56,207 bases of DNA from an uncultured Muribaculaceae bacterium (GCA_964525365.1 CAZGGW010000001.1:1-56207); one strand, 5' to 3'; numbered from the stretch's first letter, positions 184-17,776 are shown. Translations and numbers: made by a program. Notes: generated from the letters alone by a model not told the origin.

Positions 184-2699
184 TGAAGAAAAAAGAGACA
201 CAAATTATAGAAAAAATATTTGATTATTCACTTGAAGAAATAATGGGAGATAGATTTGGACGATATTCAAAATATATTATTCAAGACAGAGCACTTCCAG
301 ATGTAAGAGATGGACTAAAGCCTGTTCAAAGAAGAATACTTTATTCCATGTATAAAGATAAAAACACCTATGACAGACCAACTAGAAAATCTGCTAAAAG
401 CGTTGGAAACGTAATGGGGCAATATCATCCACATGGGGATTCAAGTATCTATGAAGCAATGGTTCGTATGAGTCAAAAATGGAAGCAAAGAGAAGTACTA
501 ATTGAAATGCAGGGAAATAATGGTTCCATTGATGGAGATGGACCAGCTGCGATGCGTTATACTGAGGCTCGTCTTGCTAAAATAAGTAATATTCTTCTTA
601 AAGATATAGAAAAAGATTGTGTTTTATTTGTGCCAACATTTGATGATGAAAGTTTTGAACCAACTGTTTTACCGGCACATTTTCCAAATTTACTTGTTAA
701 TGGTGCGACTGGTATAAGCGCAGGTTACGCTACAAATATTCCACCACATAATTTAGGAGAAATAATAGATGCAACGATTAAAAGAATCGATAGTCCAGAT
801 TGTAGACTTGATACTATTTTAAATATAGTAAAAGGTCCGGATTTTCCTACTGGAGGAATAATTGAAGGAACAGATGGTATAAAAAAAGCATATCAAACTG
901 GTAAAGGAAAAATAATAGTAAGTAGTAAATATGAATTTATTGATAATAAAAGCACTCCACAAATAATTATTACTCAGATACCATATGATACATTAAAATG
1001 TAACATTATTAAAAAAATAGAAGAAATTAGATTAGATAAAAAAATAGATGGTATAGTTGAAGTTAGAGATGAGTCAGATAAAAATGATGATCTTAGAATA
1101 GCAATTGATTTAAAAAAAGATGCTAAGAAAGACTTAATAGTAAAATATTTGCTTAAGAATACAGATATGCAAGTAAATTATAATTTTAACGTGGTTGCGA
1201 TTGTAAATAGAAGACCTAGAATACTGGGAATTCTTGAAATATTAGATGCATTCATAGCGCATCAAAAAGAAGTAATAACTAAAAGAAGTGAGTTTGATTT
1301 ATCTCATGCTGAAGCAAGACTTCATATTGTAGAAGGTTTTATAAAAGCACTCGATATATTAGATAAAATAATTAAAACAATTAGAAAAAGTAAGAATAAA
1401 CAAGACGCAATTGAAAATTTAATAACTGAATATGATTTTACTAGGTTACAAAGTGAAGCAATAGTAAATATGCAATTGTATAAACTTACGAATACAGATG
1501 TAACACTTTTGAAAGATGAAGCCCAAAGACTTAATTTAATAATAAAAGAATTAAAAGAAATTCTAGGAAGTCCTGAAAAATTAATGACGGTTATGAAAAA
1601 TGAACTTAAGTTAATAAAAAAAGAATATGCTACACCTAGAATTACACAAATAATAGAAGAAGTGACAGATTTACAAATTGATGAACTCGAAATGGTAACT
1701 AAAGAAGATTACGTTGTATGTGTTTCGGCAAGTGGCTATATCAAAAAAGTATCCATTAAAAGTTTTGAGACTTCTAATAAAGAATTAACTGGATTAAAAG
1801 ATAAAGATTATGTAGAAGGATTCTACAAGATAAATAATTTAGATACTATTTTGTTATTTACTAATAAAGGAAATTATATATATATGCCTGTAAGAGAAAT
1901 ACCTGAATATAAATATAAAGATATAGGAATACATATTAGTAATAAATGCAAAATAAGTGAAGAAGAAAGAATAGTAAAAAGTATTGGCGTTACTGATTTT
2001 AATGATGAGTACGTAACTATATTCACAAAAAATGGAATGATAAAAAGAATATTACTAAAAAGTTTTGAAGTTAGTAGATTTTCAAAGGCAATTACTATGT
2101 TTAAATTAAAAGAAAATGATGAAGTAGTTAGTGTTAGTGTAATAAACAGTGATGAACTTGCAATAATTAGTAAAAATGGATATATATTAAAATATAAAAC
2201 TCAAGAAGTTCCAATACTTGGACTCAGAACCAGTGGAGTTAAGTCTATGAAACTTGTAGAAGATGAAATAATAAATGGTTTTGTAATAAATAGTTTGCAT
2301 GAACATATTACTTTGTTTACTGATAAGAGTACTGCAAAAAGAATAAAAGTAAATGAGATTCCGCTTTTTTCAAGAGCAAAGAAAGGATTTTTGATTGCAA
2401 AAAGTCCTAAATCTAAAAAATATAATTTAATAGGAGCTTTTAATAGTGGTAGTAAATCTATCTTTGGACTTATTACTGATGCGATAGGATTTATAAAAAG
2501 TGCAGATATTCCAATTATGGATATGCATAGTGTAGGAAGCAGTATTACTAAGAAGCAAGTGGAAGATGTATTTATTAATAAAAAATTAAAAATTATGACA
2601 AAAAAGTCAGATGAGAATCTTAATAATGAAGATTTATCTAAAGAAAAAGAACCTCAAATATTAACTATGAGTGATTTCTTTGAAGAGTTTAAATTATAG
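183..2699 (+). CDS. parC: DNA topoisomerase IV subunit A
   Basis: 838-aa ORF. The N-terminus GDRFGRYSKYIIQDRALPDVRDGLKPVQRRILYSM is the ParC-type rather than the GyrA-type signature. AAMRYTEARL is the active-site Tyr region. The gene is translationally coupled to the upstream B-subunit gene. Confidence 0.9.
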   Translation: MKKKETQIIEKIFDYSLEEIMGDRFGRYSKYIIQDRALPDVRDGLKPVQRRILYSMYKDKNTYDRPTRKSAKSVGNVMGQYHPHGDSSIYEAMVRMSQKWKQREVLIEMQGNNGSIDGDGPAAMRYTEARLAKISNILLKDIEKDCVLFVPTFDDESFEPTVLPAHFPNLLVNGATGISAGYATNIPPHNLGEIIDATIKRIDSPDCRLDTILNIVKGPDFPTGGIIEGTDGIKKAYQTGKGKIIVSSKYEFIDNKSTPQIIITQIPYDTLKCNIIKKIEEIRLDKKIDGIVEVRDESDKNDDLRIAIDLKKDAKKDLIVKYLLKNTDMQVNYNFNVVAIVNRRPRILGILEILDAFIAHQKEVITKRSEFDLSHAEARLHIVEGFIKALDILDKIIKTIRKSKNKQDAIENLITEYDFTRLQSEAIVNMQLYKLTNTDVTLLKDEAQRLNLIIKELKEILGSPEKLMTVMKNELKLIKKEYATPRITQIIEEVTDLQIDELEMVTKEDYVVCVSASGYIKKVSIKSFETSNKELTGLKDKDYVEGFYKINNLDTILLFTNKGNYIYMPVREIPEYKYKDIGIHISNKCKISEEERIVKSIGVTDFNDEYVTIFTKNGMIKRILLKSFEVSRFSKAITMFKLKENDEVVSVSVINSDELAIISKNGYILKYKTQEVPILGLRTSGVKSMKLVEDEIINGFVINSLHEHITLFTDKSTAKRIKVNEIPLFSRAKKGFLIAKSPKSKKYNLIGAFNSGSKSIFGLITDAIGFIKSADIPIMDMHSVGSSITKKQVEDVFINKKLKIMTKKSDENLNNEDLSKEKEPQILTMSDFFEEFKL

Positions 2700-2732
2700 T
2701 AAAAATATTATTTAAGCATATAATATACTAGG

Positions 2733-3089
2733 GTGAAGCAGATGAAAGAAAAGTTTAAAGAATTTGTAAGGCTAAATCCCAGTTTTTCTTCATACGTAAA
2801 TAGTGGTAAAACCACATGGCAAAAATTATATGAATTATATGATATGTATGGAGAATCTAGTACAATATGGGATGAATTTAGAAAAGCCGAAGAAGTAAAA
2901 CAAAGTGGATTTAATTTAGGAAATATAGTAAATAGTATAAAAGGAATAAATTTAGATGCTTTGGGAGAAAACCTAAACAACATACAAAAAGCAGTTGGAT
3001 TTTTAGCTGATTTGACTGAGCCTAGCAAGAAAAAGGAAGAAGAAAAGAAAAAGGAAGAATCTAAGTTTGATTCATTTTATAACGACTAA
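2733..3089 (+). CDS. YlbD-like small protein (hypothetical, K/E-rich tail)
   Basis: 118-aa ORF. KEFVRLNPSFSSYVNSGKTTWQKLYELYDMYGE resembles Bacillus YlbD as I recall it (not searched). The start is GTG 2733 or ATG 2742. It sits next to a YlbE-like gene, as in Bacillus. Confidence 0.45.
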   Translation: MKQMKEKFKEFVRLNPSFSSYVNSGKTTWQKLYELYDMYGESSTIWDEFRKAEEVKQSGFNLGNIVNSIKGINLDALGENLNNIQKAVGFLADLTEPSKKKEEEKKKEESKFDSFYND

Positions 3090-3313
3090 TGAGTATTGAA
3101 TTATTAAATAAGTTAAATGAAAATCCCCTTTATAAAAAATATATTAGGCACAATTCAAATTGGTATAAAATACTAAATAGAAATCCAAATGAATTTGATA
3201 ATATGGTTAAACAGATGAAAATAGATTATAAAATGCGTACTATAGATAAATTCGATAATATTGTTGATAGTATTGATTTGATAAATAAATTTTTAAAAGT
3301 AACTAACGAGTAA
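3089..3313 (+). CDS. YlbE-like small protein
   Basis: 74-aa ORF whose ATG overlaps the previous stop (TAATG, 3087-3091). NPLYKKYIRHNSNWYKILNRNPNEFD resembles the YlbE-like family (from memory). Confidence 0.45.
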   Translation: MSIELLNKLNENPLYKKYIRHNSNWYKILNRNPNEFDNMVKQMKIDYKMRTIDKFDNIVDSIDLINKFLKVTNE

Positions 3314-3340
3314 GAAATTTTACATTTAAAAAATATATAC

Positions 3341-3370
3341 TTGACTATATATTTTTTAAAATGTTATAAT
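3341..3370 (+). promoter_or_regulatory. Sigma-A-type promoter upstream of the prepilin gene
   Basis: TTGACT (3341-3346), an 18-nt spacer, then an extended -10 TGtTATAAT (3362-3370), about 35 nt upstream of ATG 3406, which is preceded by the RBS AAAGGAA. Confidence 0.5.
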
Positions 3371-3405
3371 TGAAATGTGATAAGATATAGAAAGGAATAG
3401 ATGTT

Positions 3406-3870
3406 ATGTTAAAAAATAAAAAAGGATTTACTTTGGTGGAATTGTTAGCAGTTATTGCAATACTTGCTATTATTATAGCATTTGCATTTCCGAAAATATT
3501 AGAACAATTTAACCAAGCTAAAACAGGAGCGTTTGTAACTCAAGCCCAAAGTATTTATAGAGGAGCAAGTGAAACATATATGACTGAGGAACTCACTGGA
3601 AATGGTGGAGGCACATATTATTATGATGGTACTGAAAGTAGCAGTACTCTTGCATTAGATGATTCAACTACTGTTAAATATTATATAGTTATGACTCCTG
3701 CTGGAATTGTTACAAGTTTCAAAATATATAATGAAAAATATGAAATTATTATTGAAGATAACGCTGGCGTTAAATTAAGTGACATTAAAGAATCTGAACT
3801 AAAATCAAATAATACAGGTGTAACATTTGTAAACCTTACTGTTGCAAAAATGGCCACAGATACGGATTAA
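3406..3870 (+). CDS. Type IV pilin / pseudopilin-like protein (prepilin-type N-terminal cleavage/methylation domain)
   Basis: The N-terminus MLKNKKGFTLVELLAVIAILAIIIAFAFP is the canonical prepilin leader: a Gly cleavage site, F at +1, E at +5 and a hydrophobic helix. The protein is 154 aa. Confidence 0.85.
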   Translation: MLKNKKGFTLVELLAVIAILAIIIAFAFPKILEQFNQAKTGAFVTQAQSIYRGASETYMTEELTGNGGGTYYYDGTESSSTLALDDSTTVKYYIVMTPAGIVTSFKIYNEKYEIIIEDNAGVKLSDIKESELKSNNTGVTFVNLTVAKMATDTD

Positions 3871-3890
3871 TATTGTTATTGTAAGATTAA

Positions 3891-3917
3891 AAAGCAATTT
3901 TTTGAAATTGCTTTTTT
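3891..3917 (+). terminator. Rho-independent terminator after the prepilin gene
   Basis: Perfect 10-bp stem AAAGCAATTT / AAATTGCTTT with loop TTTG, followed by a T-run. Confidence 0.8.
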
Positions 3918-3952
3918 ATTTTGTTTTTAGTACAATAAAGTGGGTGATTAAA

Positions 3953-4810
3953 ATGGATTTAATAATTGGGTCACATGTGTCTTGCACAAGTCTGGAAGGA
4001 TTATATGGTTCTGCTAAAGAAGCAGTGTCTTATGGTGCCAATACTTTTATGATATACACTGGTCCTAATCAAAGTAGTAGTAGAGTTCCTATAAATAAGC
4101 AATTTGTTTTAAAAGCTCATTTATATATGAAGGAAAATAATATAGATATAAATAATGTTATAGTACATGCACCCTTTATAATTAACTTAGCAAATAATAA
4201 AGATGAAAGAAAATATAATTTTTATATTAGTTTTTTAAAGGAAGAAATTAATAGATGTCAACAACTTGGAATCAATAAATTAGTATTACATCCTGGAAGT
4301 GCAACAGATATAGATAGAAAGGTTGCTCTTGATAATGTGGTGTTTGGTATTAATAAAGCTCTTGAAAATGTTGATGATTTCTATTTATGTATAGAATATA
4401 TGTCCGGAAAGGGTAGTGAATTATGTTCCAATATTGAAGAGTTATCTTATATAATTAAAAACACCAGTGTGTATGTATGCTTAGATACTTGCCATATGAA
4501 TGACTCTGGTATTAATCTCAATAAATTCGATTTATTTATGGAAGAATTTGAATCGAAAATTGGAATAGAAAAAATTAAATGCATTCACATAAATGATAGT
4601 AAAAATGAAATTAGATCTCATAAAGATAGACACGAAAACATAGGATATGGCACTATTGGATTTGATAATTTAATTAATATTATATATTACCCTGCATTTA
4701 GAAATATTCCTAAAATATTAGAAACTCCATACATTGGTGAAATGGCTCCGTACAAAGAAGAAATAACTATGATAAGAAATAAAAATTTTTCCTCTTTACT
4801 TAATAAATGA
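3953..4810 (+). CDS. nfo: Endonuclease IV (AP endonuclease, Nfo)
   Basis: Motifs VHAPFIINLAN, LVLHPGS, CLDTCH and ILETP. The track ORF starts at 3842, but that start overlaps the pilin gene and its terminator. ATG 3953 (MDLIIGSHVS) matches the normal Nfo N-terminus. Confidence 0.9.
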   Translation: MDLIIGSHVSCTSLEGLYGSAKEAVSYGANTFMIYTGPNQSSSRVPINKQFVLKAHLYMKENNIDINNVIVHAPFIINLANNKDERKYNFYISFLKEEINRCQQLGINKLVLHPGSATDIDRKVALDNVVFGINKALENVDDFYLCIEYMSGKGSELCSNIEELSYIIKNTSVYVCLDTCHMNDSGINLNKFDLFMEEFESKIGIEKIKCIHINDSKNEIRSHKDRHENIGYGTIGFDNLINIIYYPAFRNIPKILETPYIGEMAPYKEEITMIRNKNFSSLLNK

Positions 4811-5050
4811 TTTATACTTTTCGTATTTTTCAATAATTTTATTATATAAATTCTCATTTAATGAAGATTTATAATTAAGTATATATTCATAAAAATCACA
4901 TTCTAATATAATATCTATATCTTTTTTTATTAAATTGTATATTAATAGTATTTCGCTTTTAGTAGCGCAAACGCATTCTTTATTTAAATATTTTACTATA
5001 TCATCCTCCGTTAGATTAGAAGCAAATTGTTTTATTAAATTTTTATTCAT
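4796..5050 (-). CDS. Small DUF2624/YqfT-like protein (hypothetical)
   Basis: 84-aa ORF convergent with nfo, with a 15-nt 3' overlap. MNKNLIKQFASNLTEDDIVKYLNK...ILLIYNLIKK resembles B. subtilis YqfT, which neighbours nfo (yqfS) there (from memory). Confidence 0.45.
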   Translation of the reverse strand: MNKNLIKQFASNLTEDDIVKYLNKECVCATKSEILLIYNLIKKDIDIILECDFYEYILNYKSSLNENLYNKIIEKYEKYKSFIK

Positions 5051-5118
5051 AATTTTCCTTTCAATAATTTTATGTTTTAATATATTTTATATTCTTAAGA
5101 AAAAAAATCGTTTATTTG

Positions 5119-5147
5119 TTGCTTTCTAAAAATTCATTTGATATAAT
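5119..5147 (+). promoter_or_regulatory. Sigma-A-type promoter of the four-gene operon
   Basis: TTGCTT (5119-5124), a 17-nt spacer, then an extended -10 TGaTATAAT (5139-5147), 30 nt upstream of ATG 5177, which is preceded by the RBS AAGGGAAG. Confidence 0.55.
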
Positions 5148-5176
5148 TTAATAAGAATAAGATAAGGGAAGATAGT

Positions 5177-6280
5177 ATGAATGATAAGCTAACAAGTAAA
5201 TATTTTAAATATAAAGAAAAAAATTACAATAGTTTTATTAGTACAATTACAAGAATGCTTAAAGTAAAACCTTGTGAATTGTGGGAAAATAAGACTTCCT
5301 TTTCTATAACTATTAAGCCTATCGTTGAAGTGTATGTGGAAAGTTATTTATATGGAGCCGAGAAAGACTACAATAAAATAAACAAATATTTCAATTTGAG
5401 TATTCAAAATAATAGAATTATTAATAATATTTTGCTTTGTATTATTAATTATTTTGAAAATAATAATAAAATCGATTCAATTAATGGTAACAAAGATAAT
5501 ATTTTGTATGCTACGATAGTAATATATTTAGCAAATTCATTTGATAAATTAATAAAACCATACGAGAAATTTGATTACAATAATACTTTGAATAAAGTGA
5601 TTGAGATCTTTAAAAATATTAATATATTAATGATTTATGAAACAAAAAGAAAAGATGTAGAAAAAATCGTTTCAATTATAGAATTAAATTGTGAGAAAGA
5701 AAAACGATTTTTGAATTCATTGGAATGTAATATTTCTTATAATAAATATAGAAGCATTACCTCTGGAAACGCTATTTTTTATGTAAAATATATATATATT
5801 TTAAAAGAAATTGAAAAATATAAAGCAGAGGATGTAAAATATGTCTTTAAGAATTTACATCTCGAAGATGAGTTATTCATGAATTGTTATGAATTATTAA
5901 ACATTACGTTGTTAAAACAAACTGTAAGAGGGCTTTCATATCAATATGTGATTCCAATTACAAGTTCAATATATAATAAAAATTCAAATATGAAGAAAAT
6001 AAACAAAATATTTTGTTTAGACTTTTATAAAAAATCTATTATGTTTATAATAAATTATAAAGATTATATTGAAAATAGGAAACAGGTCGAAAATTTAGAG
6101 AACGATTATAAAATAATTATTAACTTAGAAAATGAGAATGAAATAGATCCAATTCTTTTAAAAGATAAATTGGTGTTTGGCGAGAAAGAGTTGTTAGAAA
6201 GATATAAATTAGAAAACACAATAGAGAAAAAAATGGGAATGTTATTAACAGAAAATGAGCTGTTAAATATAGGAGGATAA
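5177..6280 (+). CDS. Hypothetical 367-aa cytoplasmic protein, first gene of the McrB-like operon (gene A)
   Basis: Long uninterrupted ORF with an RBS. No TM segment and no motif I can assign. Its 3' end carries the GGAGG RBS for the next gene, whose ATG lies one spacer nucleotide after its stop codon. Confidence 0.7.
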   Translation: MNDKLTSKYFKYKEKNYNSFISTITRMLKVKPCELWENKTSFSITIKPIVEVYVESYLYGAEKDYNKINKYFNLSIQNNRIINNILLCIINYFENNNKIDSINGNKDNILYATIVIYLANSFDKLIKPYEKFDYNNTLNKVIEIFKNINILMIYETKRKDVEKIVSIIELNCEKEKRFLNSLECNISYNKYRSITSGNAIFYVKYIYILKEIEKYKAEDVKYVFKNLHLEDELFMNCYELLNITLLKQTVRGLSYQYVIPITSSIYNKNSNMKKINKIFCLDFYKKSIMFIINYKDYIENRKQVENLENDYKIIINLENENEIDPILLKDKLVFGEKELLERYKLENTIEKKMGMLLTENELLNIGG

Positions 6281-6281
6281 A

Positions 6282-7790
6282 ATGAGTATATATGGAGAAT
6301 TTTTTATAGATTTTATGAAACCTTTCTTTCAAGGATTCCTATCAATTTTTGAAGCATTATTTAAAGGATTGTTTGAAATGTTTAATATTCTTGGCTATGT
6401 TGATATAGTAAAAGAATATTATTCTCAAATGGGTGGCTCCGGTACGATAATAGTAATACTTTCATCAATCTGTTTAATAATTATTTTTGGTGTAATAATA
6501 CTTTTAATAGTACTTGGTATAAAAAGATTAGTAAAATATAGAAAAAATCTAACCAAGCAAGAAGCATTGGTTGATGAGATTGAAGATTTGAATGCTGACG
6601 TGTATAGACTAAAGGCAGAAAATGAAAAGTTTATGAATATGGCAGATCCTGAAAATGGTGAAGTTGAATATGATGAAAACGGGAATGTTATTAATAAACT
6701 TAAAGAAGGAGAAAGTCGTTTCTTTAAACTTACTGAAGTGGATAAACAAATGGAAAGTTATGTTCCACGTGCTTTTAATGAAACAATTGGATTAAATGAA
6801 TTCTGTATAGCATTTAAAAATTATGCTGCATCCAAGTTAAAACTATACTATGATGATAAAATAATTCGTTTATTTATTTCTGCTTTTGCTTCAAATAGAT
6901 TAATTATTTTACAAGGTATCTCTGGTACAGGTAAAACTTCGTTGGCTTATGCGTTTGGTAATTTAATACAGAATGAAGCCGCAATAGCTTCTGTTCAACC
7001 ATCATGGAGAGATAGTACCGAATTATTTGGATATTTTAATGAATTCACTAAAAGATTTAATGAAACAGAAGTATTAAGTAATATGTATGAAGCTACTTAC
7101 AGAGAAGATATATTTATTACATTACTTGATGAAATGAATATATCACGTGTTGAATATTATTTTGCTGAAATGCTATCAATTTTAGAGCTTCCTAGTAGAG
7201 AAGAGTGGGTAATAGAACTTGTACCTAATAGTTGGGTGAATGATCCAAAGAAAATAATCGGTGGTAAGTTACAAATACCAGCAAACATGTGGTATATTGG
7301 TACTATAAATAACGATGATTCAACATTTATGGTAACTGATAAAGTATATGATCGTGCTATGCCAATTGAAATTAATACAAAAACGGAAAAATTTGATGCA
7401 CCAGAAACAGAAGGTATAAGTATAAAAGCAGAATATTTTGAATCGCTATTTAAAAAAGCTCAGCAAGAACATCCTTTAAGTTCAGAATTATTAGATAAAT
7501 TAAATAAAATGGATGAATATGTAATAGGACATTTCAGATTGGCTTTTGGTAACAGAATTGTTAAACAAATGAAAGATTTTATCCCAGTATATGTTGCATG
7601 TGGTGGGGATGAATTGGAAGCATTTGATTATGTAGTGGCACACAAAATATTACGTAAATTTGATCAATTAAATATGTCTTATGTAAGAAATGAAATAGAT
7701 CCGTTTATAAAATATTTAAATGAATTATTTGGTGAAAATAAAATGTTAGAATGTTTAGAAGTATTAGGTAATCTTAAAAAAATGATATAG
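6282..7790 (+). CDS. Membrane-anchored McrB-clade AAA+ GTPase (gene B)
   Basis: Walker A GISGTGKTS (nt 6915-6941), Walker B LLDEMNISRVEYYFAEMLSILE (nt about 7123-7188) and the McrB-family NxxD signature INNDDS (NNDD at nt 7308-7319). VQPSWRDSTELFGYF parallels the McrB segment between the Walker motifs. The N-terminus has an amphipathic stretch, one TM helix (aa 54-80) and a coiled-coil-like segment (aa about 90-120) where a DNA-reader domain would normally sit. Confidence 0.8.
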   Translation: MSIYGEFFIDFMKPFFQGFLSIFEALFKGLFEMFNILGYVDIVKEYYSQMGGSGTIIVILSSICLIIIFGVIILLIVLGIKRLVKYRKNLTKQEALVDEIEDLNADVYRLKAENEKFMNMADPENGEVEYDENGNVINKLKEGESRFFKLTEVDKQMESYVPRAFNETIGLNEFCIAFKNYAASKLKLYYDDKIIRLFISAFASNRLIILQGISGTGKTSLAYAFGNLIQNEAAIASVQPSWRDSTELFGYFNEFTKRFNETEVLSNMYEATYREDIFITLLDEMNISRVEYYFAEMLSILELPSREEWVIELVPNSWVNDPKKIIGGKLQIPANMWYIGTINNDDSTFMVTDKVYDRAMPIEINTKTEKFDAPETEGISIKAEYFESLFKKAQQEHPLSSELLDKLNKMDEYVIGHFRLAFGNRIVKQMKDFIPVYVACGGDELEAFDYVVAHKILRKFDQLNMSYVRNEIDPFIKYLNELFGENKMLECLEVLGNLKKMI

Positions 7791-7803
7791 AAAGGGAAAA
7801 TAT

Positions 7804-8886
7804 ATGGATAATAATTTAGTTGAACTCATTAATGGAATTAGTGAAATTGATGTAAAAACCTTTGTTAGTCAAACTAAAAGTGATTTTTTAGTTCGTACGT
7901 CTACTGAAAGCGTTAAATATGATTTTAGTTGGATTAATATGATTGAAGAATCATTACCATATATTGATAATATAATAAGAAATCCCAGACGTTTTATGGT
8001 ACCCGAAGAGGAAGTTGTAATAATTGAAAAGACAAAAAAAGTTACTAAAGATAGTATAAAACATTTGGCACAGCACACTTCATTAATTAGAGATGTTGAA
8101 CCAGATGGTACGGTTAAACCTTCTAAGTTATTGAATACTTATAAAGAAGAAACTATAGATTTATATGAAAACAGATTTATTTACTCGTTACTTAAAAATT
8201 TGTATGTTTTTATGTTAAATCAATCAAGTTTTTTACCGGTAGCCTCTTATAGCAGCAGGATTAAAAAGGTTCAGTATAGAGCCCAAACTAAAATAAAAAA
8301 AGAAAATATTCGTATGAATTTAGTTTTAGAAAGCACATACAAAGAAGAAAGTAATGAAGATATAAGTAAAATTCAGGAAAGAATAAAAAATATTAATCAA
8401 ATAGTGAGTGATTTTAATTCTAGCGCTTTTATGAAGAATTTGGTTAATATTTCTCCAGTTAAATCTCCAATTAGAAGAACAAATGTCATTTTAAAAGATC
8501 AAAATTTTAGAAAAGCACTTGAATTATGGGAATTTTTAGAAGAATATAATTTGAATGATCCAACTAAGAAAGAAAAAAGTGAAGTAGAAGATAGTAATTC
8601 ATTAATAAAAAACAAATACGATTTAACTTACTTTATTAACTATGATGCTTTAGAAAGAAAAATTGAAAATACAAATAAATCTCTAAGTGAAATGTACCTC
8701 ACAAAAATCATTGATGAAATGATAAAAAATAACACTAATGTTTCGGATATTAAAAAACTTATAACAAAGGAATTTAATAGTGCCGTTAAGAGAAAAGAAA
8801 AGTATAATAAAGAAATATGTGATTATTTTAAATTATTGAGGGAAGCTCAAGATAAGATGATATCTAAAGCAATTAAATTAATTTAG
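7804..8886 (+). CDS. McrC N-terminal / DUF2357-like protein without a recognisable nuclease domain (gene C)
   Basis: It sits immediately downstream of the McrB-like gene, in the canonical mcrB-mcrC order. IDLYENRFIYSLLKNL (ENRF at nt 8167-8178), the upstream LPYIDNIIRNPRRFMVPEEEVVIIEK, and later NVILKDQNFRKALELWEFL resemble the conserved blocks of DUF2357/McrC N-terminal regions. The protein is only 360 aa and ends in a K/E-rich helical tail. Confidence 0.55.
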   Translation: MDNNLVELINGISEIDVKTFVSQTKSDFLVRTSTESVKYDFSWINMIEESLPYIDNIIRNPRRFMVPEEEVVIIEKTKKVTKDSIKHLAQHTSLIRDVEPDGTVKPSKLLNTYKEETIDLYENRFIYSLLKNLYVFMLNQSSFLPVASYSSRIKKVQYRAQTKIKKENIRMNLVLESTYKEESNEDISKIQERIKNINQIVSDFNSSAFMKNLVNISPVKSPIRRTNVILKDQNFRKALELWEFLEEYNLNDPTKKEKSEVEDSNSLIKNKYDLTYFINYDALERKIENTNKSLSEMYLTKIIDEMIKNNTNVSDIKKLITKEFNSAVKRKEKYNKEICDYFKLLREAQDKMISKAIKLI

Positions 8887-8889
8887 TAA

Positions 8890-8918
8890 TTGTAAAAAAT
8901 ATATCTATTTTGTATAAT
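8890..8918 (+). promoter_or_regulatory. Possible internal promoter in front of gene D
   Basis: TTGTAA (8890-8895), a 17-nt spacer, then TATAAT (8913-8918) with TG immediately upstream. GGAGGA lies before ATG 8935. Such a match could arise by chance in AT-rich DNA. Confidence 0.3.
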
Positions 8919-8934
8919 AATATGTGGAGGAACT

Positions 8935-10344
8935 ATGGATAAAGACAATGAGAATAAATCAAAACAAGCGAAAAAAGTTGAAACTAAAGATGACATTTCT
9001 AAAAAAATAGATGATATTGTTAATAAAAGAAAAAAAGAAAATGAAGAACAAGAAGATTTAGTTAAAAATTTTAAGCCTCAAATTGATAAAGAAAGATTGG
9101 ATTTAACAGAGTTTGATCAAAAAGAGGAACAAGAGCAATTCAATATAATCAAAGAAATTTTAACTAGAATGTATGGTGATAATTTAGAAGTTACTAATAC
9201 AATGATTTTCAAGTGTGTTAGATTAACTTGTAATAAGAAAGATATTACTACTTATTTACCATGTAATTTAATGGTTGATAAAAAGAAGAACGAATTAATA
9301 TTTCAGTTTATAAAAAGCAAAAAAATTAATCCAGTGATTTTTGTTCTTGCAGTTTTTGCTTTCTTAATTGCAACAGCCGCTAGTACATATTCTGCGACTA
9401 TTTATATGAAAAGAGCAAAATTAAATAAAGATATAGACGGAGACAAAATTCCTGATATTAATATAGATTTAAATTCTGATGATACAGCTGACATTAACAT
9501 TGATATAAATGATGATAACAAGCCAGATGTAAATATAGACTATTATAGTAATTGGAGTTCTGTATTTAATATTGATACAACTGGTGATGGAAAAGCTGAC
9601 TCAAACTTAGTAACAGATGCAAGTACTGATGAATTATATAAAAACTGTAAATTGAATTGTGATATAGATGGAGACGGTTGGCCCGAAGTTAATTTAGATA
9701 CTGATGGTGATGGTGTAGCAAACTTTAATATTGATTTAGATAAAGATAAAATCCCAGACTTAAATATAGATTTGGATGGTGATATGAAATGTGACATTAT
9801 GTGCGACACTAATGATGATAACAAATGTGATTTGAATTGTATATATTCTGATAGTGGATACAAAGAAAATGGAAGTTCTAGTGAGACTGGTAATCCTAAT
9901 GCGGGTACGGAATCAGCATCTTTAAAAATTGTGTATAGTGAGAATAGCTTAGTAACAGCTGAAAATATATTTCCAACAGATCAAGAAGGAATAAGTACAG
10001 AAGTTCCGGATAAAATACTTACAGTAGAAAATAAAAGCACGATAAAGTTAAAATATAGTATAAAATTAATAGTTTATACAAATACATTTAATGTAAACGG
10101 ACATAATAATTTTCAGTATAAAATATCTTCTAGTAATGGTGGATATGAAACAGATTGGACCGCTGCGCCTACATCAACTACTGTAATAAAGTATGACATA
10201 ATAATAAAACCTAAAGTTATACAAAAATATACATTCTCACTAAGATTAAAAGGAACGGGAACAAATCAGAATTATGACCAAGGAAAAGAATTTAAGGCAA
10301 AAATAGAGGTTAATACTACAGATACGTTATCTGAAGTTCAGTAG
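8935..10344 (+). CDS. Single-pass membrane protein with Asp-rich Ca-binding-like repeats and a beta-rich C-terminal ectodomain (gene D)
   Basis: 469 aa. K/E-rich N-terminal region of about 130 aa with 3 Cys, then a TM helix at aa about 131-157 (INPVIFVLAVFAFLIATAASTYSATIY). Aa 166-301 carry DxDxDG/N..PD(I/V)N(I/L)D repeats. Aa about 320-469 are rich in alternating beta-like sequence. Confidence 0.75.
   Translation: MDKDNENKSKQAKKVETKDDISKKIDDIVNKRKKENEEQEDLVKNFKPQIDKERLDLTEFDQKEEQEQFNIIKEILTRMYGDNLEVTNTMIFKCVRLTCNKKDITTYLPCNLMVDKKKNELIFQFIKSKKINPVIFVLAVFAFLIATAASTYSATIYMKRAKLNKDIDGDKIPDINIDLNSDDTADINIDINDDNKPDVNIDYYSNWSSVFNIDTTGDGKADSNLVTDASTDELYKNCKLNCDIDGDGWPEVNLDTDGDGVANFNIDLDKDKIPDLNIDLDGDMKCDIMCDTNDDNKCDLNCIYSDSGYKENGSSSETGNPNAGTESASLKIVYSENSLVTAENIFPTDQEGISTEVPDKILTVENKSTIKLKYSIKLIVYTNTFNVNGHNNFQYKISSSNGGYETDWTAAPTSTTVIKYDIIIKPKVIQKYTFSLRLKGTGTNQNYDQGKEFKAKIEVNTTDTLSEVQ
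9430..9837 (+). repeat. Coding repeat: degenerate Asp-rich units (thrombospondin type-3-like / DxDxDG Ca-binding-like)
   Basis: DIDGDKIPDINIDLNSDDTADINIDINDDNKPDVNID ... CDIDGDGWPEVNLDTDGDGVANFNIDLDKDKIPDLNIDLDGDMKCDIMCDTNDDNKCDLNC. About 9-10 degenerate units are seen in the translation. Confidence 0.7.
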
Positions 10345-10360
10345 TCATCATGTTTTTAAA

Positions 10361-10389
10361 GTTAGAAATGGGATTTTCTAACTTTTTTT
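10361..10389 (+). terminator. Rho-independent terminator of the four-gene operon
   Basis: Stem GTTAGAAA / TTTCTAAC (8 bp), a 6-nt loop, then T7. Confidence 0.8.
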
Positions 10390-11545: not shown

Positions 11546-12043
11546 ATGATTAATAAACAAAGTTTATGGTTCTTAACTTTATTCAGCTTGGTATTAATAT
11601 TAGGAATATATTATATTACTATGCCAAATAATCTATTGAAATCTAATGAAGAAGTAGAAAAAGTTAATAAAGAAGTGACTGTCAATGTAGAAGAAAATGA
11701 TATGTTAGTAGCATTAAGAGTTGAAAGAGATGAAAAAATTTCTTTGAAGATGGGAGATTTACAAAGTGTCTTAACATCCGTGGAATCTAGTACTGAAGAA
11801 AAAAATTCTGCATTTGAGGAATTAAGATTGTTAAATTTAACTAAAGGAGAAGAACAAGAATTAGAAGAAAAATTGTATACAGAATTAAAAATTAAATCTT
11901 ATATAGAAATAAATGGTGACCAAATTAAAGTTATAATTAATTCTAAAGAACATGACAGTAAAATTGCAAATAGTATAATGCGTTCTATTCAAAAAGAATA
12001 CGTTGAAAAAAAGTATATAACTGTAAAATTTGAATCTCCTTAG
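11546..12043 (+). CDS. SpoIIIAH-like protein
   Basis: The N-terminus MINKQSLWFLTLFSLVLILGIYYITMP closely parallels B. subtilis SpoIIIAH (MLKKQTVWLLTMLSLVVVLSVYY, from memory). It lies downstream of efp, as the spoIIIA operon does in Bacillus. Confidence 0.6.
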   Translation: MINKQSLWFLTLFSLVLILGIYYITMPNNLLKSNEEVEKVNKEVTVNVEENDMLVALRVERDEKISLKMGDLQSVLTSVESSTEEKNSAFEELRLLNLTKGEEQELEEKLYTELKIKSYIEINGDQIKVIINSKEHDSKIANSIMRSIQKEYVEKKYITVKFESP

Positions 12044-12120
12044 GCTACTTACTCTCACTAATATGTTTTTATTTCATAAAATATTTTAGATAAAATAATA
12101 AAATATAAAGGTGGGATAGT

Positions 12121-12330
12121 GTGAACAAAAACATATTGACTAAAAGAGAAAAAGAAGTATTTGATCTTTTAGTAACAAATAAAAGTACAAAAGAGATAGC
12201 GGATGAATTATTTATAAGTGAAAAAACTGTGAGAAATCATATATCAAATTCTATGCAAAAGCTAGGAGCTAAGGGACGTGCAGGCGCAGTTATTGAACTA
12301 TTAAAATTAGGAGAAATTTCTTTGAAATGA
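12121..12330 (+). CDS. LuxR/GerE-family HTH transcriptional regulator (stand-alone DNA-binding domain)
   Basis: 69 aa with a GTG start. LTKREKEVFDLLVTNKSTKEIADELFISEKTVRNHISNSMQKLG is the GerE/LuxR C-terminal HTH. Confidence 0.85.
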   Translation: MNKNILTKREKEVFDLLVTNKSTKEIADELFISEKTVRNHISNSMQKLGAKGRAGAVIELLKLGEISLK

Positions 12331-12348
12331 CCTTTGTGGTCATTTTTT
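12325..12348 (+). terminator. Rho-independent terminator overlapping the GerE-like stop codon
   Basis: Stem AAATGACC / GGTCATTT with loop TTTGT, followed by a T-run. Confidence 0.65.
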
Positions 12349-12382
12349 AATTCAAACAATAATATAATTATATAGGTGAATT

Positions 12383-13297
12383 ATGTTAAAAAAAATGAGT
12401 ATAAAAAAAATTACTATTACAACTACTGCATTATTGGTTTTTCTACTATTTTCAATATTTCCATCCAAACAAAGCATAGCTAATAATATTAATATAAAAT
12501 ATGAAGATGCTGAGAAAAACTCTGTAGTTTTTTTATTAAATGAGAATGATTACTTAGTTCGAGTAAATGTATATATCGAACAAACTAAAAAAGAAGAAAA
12601 AATAAATTCAAAAATTAATTATTTAATTAAAAACAACAAATCAATTGATAGTTTTATGGGATTGTTACCGAGCAATACCAAAGTATTAAATATAGAAATA
12701 AAAGATAAATGTGTAATTGTAAATTTTTCAAAAGAATTTTTAGATATGGATATTGATAAAGAAGAAAATATTATTGAGTCTCTTGTATATTCTTTAACAG
12801 AGGAAGATAATATAGAATCTATTAGTATTTACGTTGAGAACAATTTATTAACCGAACTCCCTAATTCAAAGAAAAAAATACCAGAGTTTCTGGATAGAAG
12901 TTATGGAATAAATAAAGAATATGATATAACATCACTTGTGAATTTAACATCCACTACAATTTATTATACGAGTGTTGTTAACAATGAAGTGTATTATGTT
13001 CCAGTAACAAAAATCAGTAATGATAATACAGAAAAAATTGACATTATAATAAATGAATTAAAAAGTTCATTAATATATCAAAGCAATTTAAATAGTTATT
13101 TAAAAAGTGACGTAAAATTAAAAAATTATGAAATAACAGAAGAAACAATAAATTTATATTTTAATGAAAATATATTTGATGATCTTAATTCTAAAACAAT
13201 TTTAGAAGAGGTAAAATATACGATTACCCAATCAATTAAAGAAAATTATGAGGTAGAAAAGGTTGAATTTTATGTAAACGATATGCTAGTTAATTAA
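12383..13297 (+). CDS. GerM-like (GerMN domain) lipoprotein/secreted protein
   Basis: 304 aa with an N-terminal signal/TM segment. Two segments look like GerMN repeats (VIVNFSKEFLD...ESLVYSLTEEDNIESISIYVEN; INLYFNENIFD...ILEEVKYTITQSIKENYEVEKVEFYVND). Confidence 0.55.
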   Translation: MLKKMSIKKITITTTALLVFLLFSIFPSKQSIANNINIKYEDAEKNSVVFLLNENDYLVRVNVYIEQTKKEEKINSKINYLIKNNKSIDSFMGLLPSNTKVLNIEIKDKCVIVNFSKEFLDMDIDKEENIIESLVYSLTEEDNIESISIYVENNLLTELPNSKKKIPEFLDRSYGINKEYDITSLVNLTSTTIYYTSVVNNEVYYVPVTKISNDNTEKIDIIINELKSSLIYQSNLNSYLKSDVKLKNYEITEETINLYFNENIFDDLNSKTILEEVKYTITQSIKENYEVEKVEFYVNDMLVN

Positions 13298-13364
13298 TTT
13301 CTTTGAATACCTGAATAGACATTTTAATTAAAATTTGATACAATATTTTAGTAAAGAGGAAGTT

Positions 13365-13796
13365 ATGAAGATAATTTTATTAAAAGATATTAAGTCTTTA
13401 GGAAAAAAGGATGATATAAAAGAGGTAAAAGATGGATATGGAAAATTCTTAATTACTTCTGGGTCAGCTGTTTCATATACTAAAAAAAGTAATGAAATAT
13501 TATCAAATCAAATAAAAGAAAAAAGTAAAGAAGTTGAAGATTTAATAAGAGAAAACACTGATTTGAAAAACAAGTTAGAAAAATTGAATCTTGATTTTAA
13601 GGTAAAAGTAGGAAAAAATAACAAGATGTTTGGTACTATTACCGCCAAAATGATAAGCGAAAAATTAAAAACTTTAGGTTTTGACATAGATAAAAAGAAA
13701 ATTGAGTGTAAAGATCTTAATACATTGGGAGAATTTAATATAAATATAAATTTATATAAGAAAATAATAGCAAAGATTAAAGTAATAGTTAGTTAG
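13365..13796 (+). CDS. rplI: 50S ribosomal protein L9
   Basis: MKIILLKDIKSLGKKDDIKEVKDGYGKFLI is the L9 N-terminus. ATG 13365 follows the RBS AAAGAGGAAG. The track start at 13335 is upstream of the RBS. Confidence 0.9.
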   Translation: MKIILLKDIKSLGKKDDIKEVKDGYGKFLITSGSAVSYTKKSNEILSNQIKEKSKEVEDLIRENTDLKNKLEKLNLDFKVKVGKNNKMFGTITAKMISEKLKTLGFDIDKKKIECKDLNTLGEFNININLYKKIIAKIKVIVS

Positions 13797-13806
13797 TAGG
13801 AGTATT

Positions 13807-15147
13807 ATGGCAAGAAAAGAACCACAAAATATTGATGCTGAGATTAATGCGCTAGGAAGTGCATTTTTAAGCGTATCCGTTTTAGATAAAATATGTGAAG
13901 AATTAACTGAAGATATGTTTTTTAGTAAGCAAAATCAAATTCTTTATAAAGTAATAAAGCTTTTACATACTAAAGAAATTCCAATTGACGCTACCACAGT
14001 AATAAATGAATTAGAAAAAAGCGACGAACTTTCAAAGGTTGGAGGAGTGGAGTATATAACTGAGGTATTATCTTCAGTTGCTTCAGTAGCGAATATACAA
14101 TATTATGTAAATATCATTTTTGAAAAATATATTTTACGAACATTAATTAATAAAACAACTGAAATACAAACTGACTGTTATGAAGAAAAAGAAGAAGTAG
14201 ATCAAATAGTAGAAGATGCTGAAAAATCAATATTAAGTGTAAATAATGATAGACTTGGTAAAGAAATAATGTCTATTCAAGATATTCTTCCAGAGGTACA
14301 AGCTAACATTGAAGAACTTGCTAAAAACAAAGGAAAAGTGACAGGAGTATCTACTGGATTTTATGAATTAGATAAAATCACAAGAGGTTTTCAGCCACAT
14401 GAAGTAATTATTATCGCTGGACGTCCTGGTGGTGGTAAATCTGCTTTAGCACTTAATATTGCTACTAATGTTGCGATTAATGAAAAGAAATCAGTAGCTT
14501 TATTTAGTTTGGAAATGGGTGCAGAAGAACTTGCTAAAAGAATGTTTTCTTCAGTTGGACAAATTGAATCTGATAATATAAAAACTGGTAAACTTAATAA
14601 TAATGATTGGAAGAAGTTGAATGAAGCAATTAGTGAACTTGCAGATACAAAATTATTTTTAGATGATACAGCTGGAATAACTGTTGGAGAAATCAGAAGA
14701 AAATGTAGAAGAATTAAAAATTCTAGTTCTGGGCTTGATTTAATCGTAATAGATTATTTACAACTTATAAGTAGCTCTGCTAAATATGCTGGAAATCGTG
14801 TACAAGAAGTCAGTGAGGTTTCACGTGATTTAAAAAAACTTGCTATGGAAATGAACGTCCCGGTAATAGCTTTAGCACAATTATCTCGTAGTTCTGAAGC
14901 CAGAAAAGGTGATGAAAGAAAACCTAGACTTAGTGATTTGAGAGAGAGCGGAAGTATAGAACAAGATGCTGATATAGTATCATTTATTTATAGTGATGAT
15001 TATTATGATAATATAAGTGCGATATCTTCTGAAGTACAAGTTATAGTTGCTAAAAATAGAAGTGGATCTACCGGAATTGCAAATTTATTATTTGAGAAAA
15101 ATATGGGTAGTTTTAAAAATTATAAAACGAGGGAAGAAAATGAGTAA
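13807..15147 (+). CDS. dnaB: Replicative DNA helicase
   Basis: 446 aa. Walker A GRPGGGKSALAL, Walker B LIVIDYLQL, and SRDLKKLAMEMNVPVIALAQLSR. The rplI-dnaB adjacency is typical of Firmicutes. Confidence 0.92.
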   Translation: MARKEPQNIDAEINALGSAFLSVSVLDKICEELTEDMFFSKQNQILYKVIKLLHTKEIPIDATTVINELEKSDELSKVGGVEYITEVLSSVASVANIQYYVNIIFEKYILRTLINKTTEIQTDCYEEKEEVDQIVEDAEKSILSVNNDRLGKEIMSIQDILPEVQANIEELAKNKGKVTGVSTGFYELDKITRGFQPHEVIIIAGRPGGGKSALALNIATNVAINEKKSVALFSLEMGAEELAKRMFSSVGQIESDNIKTGKLNNNDWKKLNEAISELADTKLFLDDTAGITVGEIRRKCRRIKNSSSGLDLIVIDYLQLISSSAKYAGNRVQEVSEVSRDLKKLAMEMNVPVIALAQLSRSSEARKGDERKPRLSDLRESGSIEQDADIVSFIYSDDYYDNISAISSEVQVIVAKNRSGSTGIANLLFEKNMGSFKNYKTREENE

Positions 15148-16579: not shown

Positions 16580-17342
16580 AATGAAAGCAATTGTACTTGG
16601 CAGCGGTTCTTCTGGGAATTCAACCTATATTGAAATAAATAATATTAAAATATTAATTGATATAGGTTTTTCCTATAGAAGTTTGAAAGAAAAATTAAAA
16701 ACAATTAGTGTGTTTCCTAAAGATATAGACTATATTTTTATAACACATGAACACACTGACCACACATTTGGATTATGTTCATTCTTAAAAAATAATAATC
16801 CAGTAGTATATATTGATGATTCAATTAAAGATATTTGCTTAAAAGACTTAAATTATGAAAATATAAAAAACATTGAAGAAGAAATCATTATAAATAACGT
16901 ATTAATAAGAAAGGTACCAACATCTCACGATTCATTGTTTTCTTGTGGTTTTTTGATTCAAGATGATCATGAATCAATAGTATATATTACTGATACTGGA
17001 TATATTAACACAAGATTATTTAAAATTATTCAAAATAAAAAATACTATATTTTAGAAAGTAATCACGATGTAGAAATGCTTTTACACGGTCATTATCCAT
17101 TGTATTTACAAAGAAGAATTCTTAGCGACAAAGGTCATTTATCTAATGAATCATGTGGAGAATATCTTTCTAGGATAGTTGGTCCTAATACAAAGAAAAT
17201 AGTGCTTGCGCATTTAAGCGAACATAATAATAAACCTGATTTAGCTCTTGAAACTGTAAAACATATATTAGCAAATAATAATATTGACAATATTGAGACT
17301 ACTTGTGCAACGCAAAAAGAAATAGAATGTGTGACAGTATGA
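16572..17342 (+). CDS. MBL-fold metallo-hydrolase, YycJ/WalJ-like
   Basis: 256 aa. LGSGSSGNSTYI, THEHTDHTFG (HxHxDH) and LAHLSEHNN. The position upstream of rlmH matches Bacillus yycJ. Confidence 0.8.
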   Translation: MIKMKAIVLGSGSSGNSTYIEINNIKILIDIGFSYRSLKEKLKTISVFPKDIDYIFITHEHTDHTFGLCSFLKNNNPVVYIDDSIKDICLKDLNYENIKNIEEEIIINNVLIRKVPTSHDSLFSCGFLIQDDHESIVYITDTGYINTRLFKIIQNKKYYILESNHDVEMLLHGHYPLYLQRRILSDKGHLSNESCGEYLSRIVGPNTKKIVLAHLSEHNNKPDLALETVKHILANNNIDNIETTCATQKEIECVTV

Positions 17343-17776
17343 TAAAAATAATATGTGTTGGAAGTATAAAAGAAAAATATTTAAATGAATTAATTGGTGA
17401 TTATTTTAAAAGAATAAAAAAATATCATAAAATAGAAATAGTTGAATTAAAAGATTCAAATAAACAAGAAGAAAATAAAAAAATAAGAGATACAATAAAT
17501 GAAAAAGAATATGTGATTGCTTTAGATAAAAGCGGTGTACAAATAAATACAATACAATTTCAAGAAAAAATAGAGTCTTTGTTTAATCAGAGTCTTTCAA
17601 ACATTACTTTTATTATTGGTGGGTCAGAAGGCTTAGAAGATGAAACATTGAAATTGTGCGAATATATTTTGTCATTTTCACAATTAACTTTCCCCCATGG
17701 ATTATTTAGAGGTATTTTATTAGAACAAATATATAGAATATTTAAAATAATGAATAATGAAACTTATCATAAATAA
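17339..17776 (+). CDS. rlmH: 23S rRNA (pseudouridine1915-N3)-methyltransferase
   Basis: MIKIICVGSIKEKYLNELIGDYFKRIKKY ... TFPHGLFRGILLEQIYR (SPOUT fold). ATG 17339 overlaps the yycJ-like TGA. The track start at 17303 lies inside the upstream gene. Confidence 0.88.
   Translation: MIKIICVGSIKEKYLNELIGDYFKRIKKYHKIEIVELKDSNKQEENKKIRDTINEKEYVIALDKSGVQINTIQFQEKIESLFNQSLSNITFIIGGSEGLEDETLKLCEYILSFSQLTFPHGLFRGILLEQIYRIFKIMNNETYHK

Follow-up and report, generated by a model that had tools for sequence, protein, structure and literature searches.

Structure of the operon

The contig CAZGGW010000001.1 of assembly GCA_964525365.1 was analyzed over its whole length of 56,207 nt (hereafter, the window), and carries a compact operon of four genes, designated here A, B, C, and D. 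The core of the operon is formed by genes B and C, which are predicted to encode a membrane-anchored GTPase of the McrB family and a nuclease-less partner with the N-terminal domain of McrC (DUF2357). They are preceded by gene A, whose product has a C-terminal half modeled as an EAL fold without catalytic residues, and followed by gene D for a predicted bitopic membrane protein with aspartate-rich repeats. No names were found in databases for any of the four proteins. The coordinates of the genes and of their characteristic features are collected in Table 1.

All four genes lie on the plus strand, the intergenic gaps being 1 nt (A-B), 13 nt (B-C), and 48 nt (C-D). Each gene is preceded by a GGAGG-type ribosome-binding site, and that of B is located within the last codons of A. 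Coordinates and ribosome-binding sites confirm an initial annotation, made from the sequence alone, that had described four packed plus-strand open reading frames (ORFs) with these gaps. The same annotation had proposed a promoter upstream of A and a strong terminator downstream of D. The terminator is well supported by RNA folding (dG of -14.8 kcal/mol, z = -5.4, with none of 200 shuffled sequences as stable), although it was overlooked by a consensus scanner because its stem is AT-rich. As for the promoter, the sequence is indeed present, and the site is a plausible promoter of the A-D operon, but it carries no statistical weight above the background of AT-rich DNA: a scan of the window (25.6% GC) yielded 46 promoter-like sites against 53.7 expected from shuffled sequences. 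Another candidate site found by the scanner is located in the C-D gap and may provide separate expression of D.

Predicted properties of the encoded proteins

The GTPase core of B was recognized by sequence similarity of residues 189-399 to the AAA+ structures of Escherichia coli McrB (phmmer search of the PDB, E = 5e-6); the match to Pfam AAA_5 is weak. The strongest library match is the PADLOC model PDC-M26A (E = 1.7e-39), in which residues 185-305 of B correspond to positions 312-433 of the 724 profile positions. The candidate system PDC-M26 requires both of its component models; in the PADLOC search, a check proposed in the initial annotation, only B has a match, and no model was hit by A, C, or D. 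PDC-M26 was not mentioned in the papers covered by our literature search.

Both Walker motifs (A and B) and the segment GTINNDDSTF are invariant across 23 homologs of B. The McrB-clade signatures reported initially are therefore retained with respect to the Walker motifs, whereas the third of them, originally read as NxxD, is better described as NxD followed by D. The segment GTINNDDST of B aligns without gaps with GTANHDETT of a coiled-coil GTPase encoded by the Polaromonas plasmid pPNAP01 (38% identity, E = 8e-57), which places B in the NxD(+D/E) clade. The NNDD spacing is also compatible with the NxxD of E. coli McrB, so that the assignment rests on the closer pPNAP01 relative; given this alignment, we consider the NxD(+D/E) motif the more likely one. 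The pPNAP01 protein (813 aa, Polaromonas naphthalenivorans), which has a long N-terminal coiled coil, is the closest annotated relative of B outside the family. It is encoded in a four-gene plus-strand unit (locus L087, 132-145 kb) composed of a large AAA protein, a hypothetical protein, the 813-aa NHDE GTPase, and a 631-aa partner that shows weak similarity to C (E = 3e-6) and has no Pfam match. This unit is probably a system of the CoCoNuT (coiled-coil nuclease tandem) kind residing on a conjugative IncP plasmid.

At its N-terminus, B contains one strong hydrophobic segment, so that the transmembrane helix of the membrane tether proposed initially is upheld, and the segment is conserved in full length in all 86 related loci considered below. 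Hydropathy and charge analysis shows that it is followed by a stretch with a charge of +3, which argues for a cytoplasmic location of the GTPase. The next 35 residues (87-121) are free of proline and glycine and 40% charged, and possibly form a short coiled coil. No DNA-binding match was found in Pfam or NCBIfam for residues 1-180, a region occupied by the transmembrane helix, the charged helix, and a short conserved linker. In agreement with the initial description, B is thus predicted to be an McrB-family GTPase anchored by a transmembrane helix and devoid of a recognizable DNA-reader domain. One Clostridial homolog of B (P0029, 646 aa; locus L006, 8001-9941) contains an internal tandem duplication of approximately 140 residues that covers NNDD and part of the lid and may be either real or an assembly artefact.

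Residues 24-139 of C match the Pfam family DUF2357, i.e., the McrC N-terminal domain, with 38.6 bits (curated cutoff, 23.3 bits), and 1481 homologs of C were collected. Comparison of 31 homologs with 41-48% identity shows IIRNPRRF, DLYENRF, and PVRSPIRKTNVILK...NF...WE as invariant blocks, and none of the acidic residues after position 125 is invariant; therefore, C does not contain the D...(D/E)xK triad. In the AlphaFold2 model of C (predicted local distance difference test, pLDDT, of 76.5), long beta-hairpins are combined with a mostly helical C-terminal part that ends in a 47-residue helix (313-359), whereas residues 66-116, located where the pore-inserting stalk of McrC would lie, are modeled with low confidence. 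Neither a Pfam nuclease match for C nor a significant fold match, including any nuclease, for its model against the PDB and BFVD was found, and a search of the C profile against PDB sequences gave nothing. The kinship of C with McrC is based on the Pfam DUF2357 match and on the weak pairwise match to the pPNAP01 partner. Long homologs of C in Clostridia additionally show coiled-coil-type matches. As initially proposed, C thus appears to be a protein with the McrC N-terminal domain, the one that engages McrB, and without a nuclease.

Protein A evolves fast: a word-index homolog search retrieved only A itself, and an exhaustive search was needed to obtain 48 representative clusters (E <= 1e-3). 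The AlphaFold2 model built from the resulting alignment has a pLDDT of 90.5 and a predicted template modeling (pTM) score of 0.88. It represents a cytoplasmic protein without a hydrophobic segment, consisting of an N-terminal helical domain (approximately residues 1-180) and a C-terminal alpha/beta domain. Contrary to the initial annotation, which had found no recognizable motif in A, all of the 50 best Foldseek matches of the model in the PDB are EAL domains, with probabilities of 0.99-1.00 and E values as low as 3e-5; they include those of Bd1971, MorA, MucR, FimX, LapD, and RocR (E from 3e-5 to 7e-3). The target-normalized TM-score varies between 0.40 and 0.53 for EAL chains that stand alone (about 250 residues) and is lower for multidomain chains. 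The catalytic motifs EAL and DDFG are absent from A, in which only N189 and K247 are conserved in at least 90% of 41 sequences, and A has no Pfam EAL match. The only PDB sequence retrieved with the A-family profile, a designed TIM barrel, was rejected as a match via the beta/alpha repeats. According to the model, the C-terminal half of A is an EAL fold lacking catalytic as well as conserved acidic residues, and A is not a nuclease; profile and structure searches for a nuclease, suggested by the initial annotation as a check, found none in either A or C. Like FimX and LapD, whose EAL domains are also degenerate, A is possibly a receptor of cyclic di-GMP (c-di-GMP).

The single transmembrane segment of D is preceded by a charge of +5, so that D is predicted to be a single-pass protein with a cytoplasmic N-terminus. 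An alignment of 24 members shows a lysine-rich cytoplasmic region with a conserved domain of approximately 60 residues, the transmembrane helix, which in D ends in ASTYSAT, and an ectodomain formed by DxDxDG repeats with conserved cysteine pairs and a conserved beta-rich C-terminal domain. D had initially been characterized as a single-pass membrane protein with Asp repeats, and this holds; we describe it as a putative bitopic calcium-repeat surface protein. The D profile has no significant match in the PDB or Pfam. Like A, D evolves fast, and it has variable paralogs.

Table 1. Genes and predicted features of the A-D operon (positions in the window).
Feature	Position	Strand	Description
Promoter-like site	5119-5147	+	TTGCTT, 17-nt spacer, TGaTATAAT; perfect extended -10, -35 with only 3/6 matches
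Gene A	5177-6280	+	367 aa
EAL-like alpha/beta domain of A	5729-6271	+	Residues ~185-365; predicted from secondary structure and Foldseek
Gene B	6282-7790	+	502 aa
Transmembrane segment of B	6426-6539	+	Residues ~49-86; Kyte-Doolittle 19-residue mean up to 3.35; single strong segment
AAA+ GTPase core of B	6834-7481	+	Walker A GISGTGKTS, Walker B LLDEMN
Signature N343-N-D-D346 of B	7308-7319	+	All four residues invariant in 23 homologs; read as NxD then D
Gene C	7804-8886	+	360 aa
Promoter-like site in the C-D gap	8890-8918	+	TTGTAA-17-TATAAT; 10/12 matches
Gene D	8935-10344	+	469 aa
Transmembrane helix of D	9316-9402	+	Residues ~128-156; Kyte-Doolittle mean 2.38; charge +5 before, 0 after
Asp-rich region of D	9430-9834	+	Residues 166-300; 27% Asp, 9 DxDxD motifs, 5 Cys
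Intrinsic terminator	~10358-10389	+	11-bp stem AAAGUUAGAAA/UUUCUAACUUU, then U-run

Distribution and genomic context of the family

Homologs of B constitute at least 8000 clusters. The best 120 of them are full-length proteins with 58-68% identity, almost all of them from metagenome-assembled genomes labeled as "Bacilli bacterium." A scan with one genome per species identified B in at least 591 species, comprising gut Bacilli labeled as Tenericutes or Mycoplasmatota-like and Clostridia, among them Ruminococcus, Acutalibacteraceae, Christensenellales, and Oscillospiraceae. Identity of B across the Bacilli and Clostridia varies between 46 and 68%, and the module is kept even in small genomes of 1.1-1.8 Mb. 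A search of 72,556 plasmids and 50,697 phages yielded no full-length homolog, and none of the operon proteins has a match in PHROG.

To the left of the operon, the window contains a gyrA/parC-like gene, ylbD, ylbE, a pseudopilin gene, and nfo; to the right of it are rpmG, efp, a SpoIIIAH-like gene, gerM, rplI, and dnaB, with genes for tRNA synthetases and ABC transporters, ftsW/rodA, comEC, and mnmA farther along. The housekeeping nature of both flanks, with nfo on one side and rpmG-efp on the other, is as initially annotated. Annotation of the 56-kb window revealed no defense or mobile genes around the operon, and the GC content of the operon (0.256) equals that of the window. A prophage or defense-island context and a recent horizontal transfer detectable by composition were both considered and rejected, the former because the window is housekeeping throughout and the latter because the operon does not differ from its surroundings.

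Genomic neighborhoods of B were compared in 86 related loci, near-identical strains included (65 clusters of B at 90% identity), by clustering the neighboring ORFs into families; a signal peptidase was counted as associated when located within 8 kb of B. Gene C directly follows B in 85 loci, and in the remaining one the contig ends just after B. Three main layouts can be distinguished. The layout observed in the window, A-B-C-D, often with extra D paralogs, occurs in 33 loci, 27 of which contain no other recurrent partner. The second layout is SipW, f6, f9, f8, A, B, C, SipW, f7, f6, f4, f4, and the third one, from which A is missing, is (EAL), f4, f4, f4, SipW, B, a long coiled-coil C, f4, f4, f4. 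The designation SipW stands for family f2, a signal peptidase I of the SipW/archaeal type (67.3 bits to TIGR02228, for which the cutoff is 51.85). It was found near B in 57 of all 86 loci, whereas among the 33 loci of the A-B-C-D layout only 6 contain it.

The proteins of families f4 and f6-f9 are secreted and rich in beta structure, and in them an N-terminal hydrophobic segment is followed by motifs of the TATFAWFT, NSYAWF, SYAKY, or AYARYE type. Profile comparison by hhalign links five pairs of these families with probabilities of 91-97% (f4-f7, f6-f7, f6-f9, f7-f9, and f8-f9). Proteins of family f10 have a canonical EAL domain (Pfam E = 9e-48). Genes of this family and gene A were never observed together: 53 loci contain only A, 12 contain only the EAL gene, and none contains both (p = 1.7e-6 in a Fisher test without correction for phylogeny). 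This alternation suggests control by a second messenger.

Genes flanking the operon in the window do not recur beside B elsewhere, with the exception of nfo in two loci; therefore, the unit has moved as a block. The A-B-C-D layout at 33 loci, transferred as a unit to different positions, answers positively the question, raised by the initial annotation, of whether the four genes co-occur in other genomes. In five close relatives (loci L001-L004 and L010; approximately 2500-6350 and 11950-17500), a gene for a DUF87/FtsK-like ATPase and a large D paralog are located upstream of A-B-C-D, whereas the downstream genes encode two secreted proteins of 197 aa, a 385-aa protein that carries an S26 signal-peptidase domain at its C-terminus, and one protein each with DUF5305 and with an ALK_LTK glycine-rich domain; these surroundings look like a larger surface-protein cluster. 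On one JGI contig (L005, 2472-4772), a gene similar to TraG/type IV secretion system coupling proteins precedes A-B-C-D, and this neighbor raises the possibility that some copies of the unit reside in conjugative elements.

Comparison with known systems

Approximately 34,000 McrBC systems were surveyed by Bell et al. (2024; eLife 13:RP94800; PMC11090510), who described a major branch of GTPases in which NxxD has contracted to NxD, in most cases with E or another D after it. A single paragraph of that paper (PMC11090510) names CoCoPALM, in which a GTPase of the NxD type is fused to a transmembrane helix and a coiled coil and linked to signal peptidases. The N-terminus of the CoCoPALM GTPase was termed FtsB-like, its McrC homolog was noted to have usually a coiled coil, and the proteins of the signal-peptidase family were regarded as putative pilus assembly factors, details being deferred to a later paper (PMC11090510). 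Our literature search found no use of the term CoCoPALM in other papers and nothing relevant on McrB in combination with EAL or c-di-GMP; a match for McrB and SipW was discarded as merely an E. coli strain genotype.

The initial annotation knew of no described system of this composition. The B-C core, however, fits CoCoPALM: B is an McrB-like GTPase with an NxD(+D/E) signature, in which an N-terminal transmembrane helix is followed by a charged helical segment; the adjacent DUF2357 homolog of McrC ends in a long helix; and the wider B family is found amid SipW-type signal peptidases. The window differs from the published description in that a signal peptidase and a secreted "pilin-like" family are not present within the 56 kb, whereas the degenerate EAL-fold protein A and the bitopic Asp-repeat protein D, both unmentioned in the paper, are added to the operon.

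McrBC is the textbook example of a GTP-dependent restriction enzyme. The window operon shares with the classical McrBC of E. coli K-12 (PDB 6HZ4, 6UT6, and 7VSR) the AAA+ core with Walker A, Walker B, and an Asn-Asp signature, the DUF2357 N-terminal domain of the partner, and the B-then-C gene order. In contrast to that system, the operon contains neither an N-terminal methyl-DNA reader nor a PD-(D/E)xK nuclease, B is membrane-anchored, its signature belongs to the NxD class, and its similarity to E. coli McrB is low. B is closer to the GTPases of the CoCoNuT systems (CnuB/CnuC), being assigned to the same NxD clade, as seen from its 38% identity with the coiled-coil GTPase of pPNAP01, and some CnuC homologs also have no active nuclease (PMC11090510). 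Unlike CoCoNuTs, proteins A-D yielded no nuclease or helicase matches, i.e., neither HEPN or another nuclease nor the CnuH helicase, the long N-terminal coiled coil is replaced in B by a transmembrane anchor, and the genomic context is not a defense island.

Two further comparisons concern A and the secreted families. FimX regulates pilus assembly, and LapD regulates adhesin retention. The C-terminal EAL fold of A, being without catalytic residues, resembles those of FimX from Pseudomonas and Xanthomonas (4AG0, 3HV9, and 4F48) and LapD from Pseudomonas and Vibrio (6PWJ). In contrast to these proteins, A has neither detectable sequence similarity to them nor GGDEF or PAS modules, and its N-terminal helical domain is unrelated. 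The pairing of SipW-type peptidases with secreted proteins at the related loci resembles the SipW-dependent fiber systems, namely TapA-SipW-TasA of Bacillus subtilis and SipW-BsaA of Clostridium perfringens, and the N-termini of these secreted proteins, with a hydrophobic segment and an A(W/Y/K)(F/Y) motif, resemble the signals of TasA and camelysin. This TasA-likeness is limited, as far as the sequences indicate, to the signal-anchor motif, and we know of no McrBC-like motor in the TasA and BsaA systems.

Functional interpretation

Assignment of the operon to the CoCoPALM type appears quite probable, given the properties of B and C and the association of the wider family with signal peptidases. 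The window version is a reduced A-B-C-D variant of this type, with two additions, a partner of the EAL fold that had not been reported before and a candidate client in the membrane. For an envelope or surface function of the operon, which is suggested by the gene neighborhoods, we regard the chances as evenly balanced. Taken together, we lean slightly toward the view that the operon is a reduced CoCoPALM-class derivative of McrBC that acts as an envelope or surface-structure system rather than as a restriction enzyme. The initial annotation had proposed two readings, an McrBC motor rewired to the envelope and a defense system, and the former proved to be the better one, whereas the latter has little support: A, C, and D have no PADLOC matches, PHROG matches are absent, and the context is housekeeping.

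Several observations weigh against this interpretation. The functional part of it rests on gene neighborhoods, and the signal-peptidase association that defines CoCoPALM is missing from the window locus, which shares the A-B-C-D-only layout with 27 of the 86 loci: tblastn with all f2 members found no SipW-like gene in the 56-kb window, i.e., in the whole contig, and no homologs of f4 or f6-f9 were found there either. A relationship of family f4 and D to TasA is not seen at the profile level, since the f4 profile has no sequence match to the solved TasA structures, the D profile shows no detectable relationship to TasA in the PDB, and D and f4 are linked by hhalign with a probability of only 52%. 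The link of A to EAL domains is structural only, its family being related to the neighboring canonical EAL family with an hhalign probability of 0.6%, and the window contains no GGDEF, EAL, or PilZ genes. The model of C does not retrieve even McrC from the PDB. With respect to the N-terminus of B, the coiled coil that the initial annotation had added to the transmembrane tether is not supported by a significant heptad test of residues 87-121 (280/1000 shuffles), and the FtsB homology expected for CoCoPALM was not confirmed, the DivIC and ZapB matches in residues 68-118 being weak and DivIC being hit, below the cutoff, in only 3 of 23 members (best E = 0.028). Finally, the top match of B in a defense library is PDC-M26A, and its nearest relatives outside the family are CoCoNuT-like systems predicted to function in defense.

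The last two facts, together with the McrBC ancestry evident from the McrB and DUF2357 matches, are also the basis for considering anti-phage defense, in which a membrane-tethered sensor or motor derived from Type IV restriction would detect phage DNA or envelope perturbation and elicit an abortive or membrane-level response via A or D. Different chromosomal positions of the unit in different genomes would be consistent with such a role, and an arms race could yield the fast evolution of A and D and the variability of D paralogs. Nevertheless, no nuclease, HEPN domain, pore-former, or other recognizable effector was found in the operon, A, C, and D match nothing in PADLOC or PHROG, and the neighborhood consists of housekeeping genes of ordinary GC content, with defense and mobile genes not found. 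Moreover, the full-length form is absent from the plasmids and phages searched, B recurs together with signal peptidases, secreted proteins, and genes for EAL proteins rather than with defense genes, and its conservation across two classes is unusually high. A defensive role thus seems unlikely to us, although it deserves to be kept in view.

Two other explanations appear less probable. In a cell-division, sporulation, or envelope-stress module, an FtsB/DivIC-like transmembrane helix with a coiled coil would bring B to the divisome or to the membrane of the forespore, with D as a structural protein of the envelope. The weak DivIC and ZapB matches and the FtsB-like designation of the N-terminus (Bell et al., 2024; PMC11090510) point in this direction, as do the YlbD coat, SpoIIIAH-like, GerM, and YqfD genes nearby in the window and the retention of the module in small genomes. 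However, given that the DivIC match is below threshold, that the sporulation and division neighbors seen in the window do not recur beside B in the other 86 loci, and that the consistent partners, i.e., SipW, the secreted families, and EAL, point to surface proteins and not to the divisome, we find this explanation improbable. An ordinary McrBC restriction system, with DNA-binding and nuclease parts that have diverged beyond recognition, would agree with the canonical B-then-C order and with the McrB and DUF2357 matches, but it is very hard to reconcile with the lack of an invariant acidic residue after position 125 in 31 homologs of C, the predicted mostly helical C-terminal part of C, from which no nuclease fold was retrieved, the identification of A as an EAL fold without catalytic residues, and the transmembrane helix at the N-terminus of B, which is unsuited to a freely translocating DNA motor; we give it hardly any credence.

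Under the envelope or surface interpretation, the operon would encode an AAA+ module, driven by GTP, in which both parts required for restriction, the DNA reader and the nuclease, are lost and which has been relocated to the membrane's inner face. As in E. coli McrBC, with B now tethered to the membrane, B would form a ring, and a stalk of C, possibly the segment modeled with low confidence (residues 66-116), would enter this ring and boost GTP hydrolysis. A would serve, by analogy with FimX and LapD, as a regulatory adaptor that couples the motor to a signal, possibly c-di-GMP. The motor would work on the cytoplasmic domain of D, which is the likely client in the minimal four-gene version, and on substrates of SipW in the larger clusters; the outcome would be control over how a cell-surface protein or fiber is exported, processed, anchored, or assembled. 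In its full form, this proposal states that exaptation has turned a GTPase motor of the McrBC type into the cytoplasmic engine of an uncharacterized Gram-positive surface-protein or fiber system, in which membrane-tethered B6-C acts on D or on SipW-processed subunits and A exerts control, possibly via c-di-GMP. We advance it tentatively, as a possibility that falls short of being probable.

If true, it would provide the first function of the McrBC family not involving nucleic acids and a new class of envelope machinery. The module itself occurs in Bacilli and Clostridia of the gut, in at least about 600 species. The carriers of B are abundant and mostly uncultured gut Firmicutes, and the strong conservation of the motor, its wide spread, and its retention in small genomes imply that it has gained a different and important job. 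The published record on CoCoPALM amounts to one paragraph, to which the present analysis adds the EAL-fold partner, D as a candidate client, and, for the larger versions, SipW with a related set of secreted families. Being compact, the A-B-C-D operon offers a tractable minimal system for studying the role of an McrBC motor at the membrane.

Other features of the window

A type IV pilin/pseudopilin-like gene (3406-3870, plus strand; Pfam N_methyl, E = 3.6e-09), whose product has the N-terminus KGFTLVELLAVIAILAII, is located 1.3 kb upstream of the operon; it is solitary between ylbE and nfo, without other pilus genes nearby. The following nfo-like ORF (3842-4810, plus strand), as listed, starts with TTG and overlaps the pseudopilin gene. 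Its true start is probably an internal methionine (MDLIIGSHV...) at approximately 3953, since the AP_endonuc_2 match begins at residue 59.

Genes associated with sporulation, encoding the YlbD coat protein, YlbE, a SpoIIIAH-like protein, GerM/Germane, and YqfD, are located at 2733-3313, 11546-13297, and 22124-23269, and the host with its low GC content is therefore likely a spore-former, in contrast to the wall-less "Tenericutes" labels of some of its relatives. A XerC/D-type tyrosine recombinase (54359-55264, minus strand; Phage_integrase family, E = 5.8e-46) is encoded near the contig end beside a phosphopentomutase-like gene and is probably a chromosomal dimer-resolution recombinase, not an integrase of a mobile element. 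An ORF of 754 aa at 29870-32134 (plus strand) has no Pfam match, and the gene at 41168-42922 (plus strand) encodes a 584-aa BspA-type leucine-rich-repeat (LRR_5) protein, a kind typical of host-associated surface proteins.

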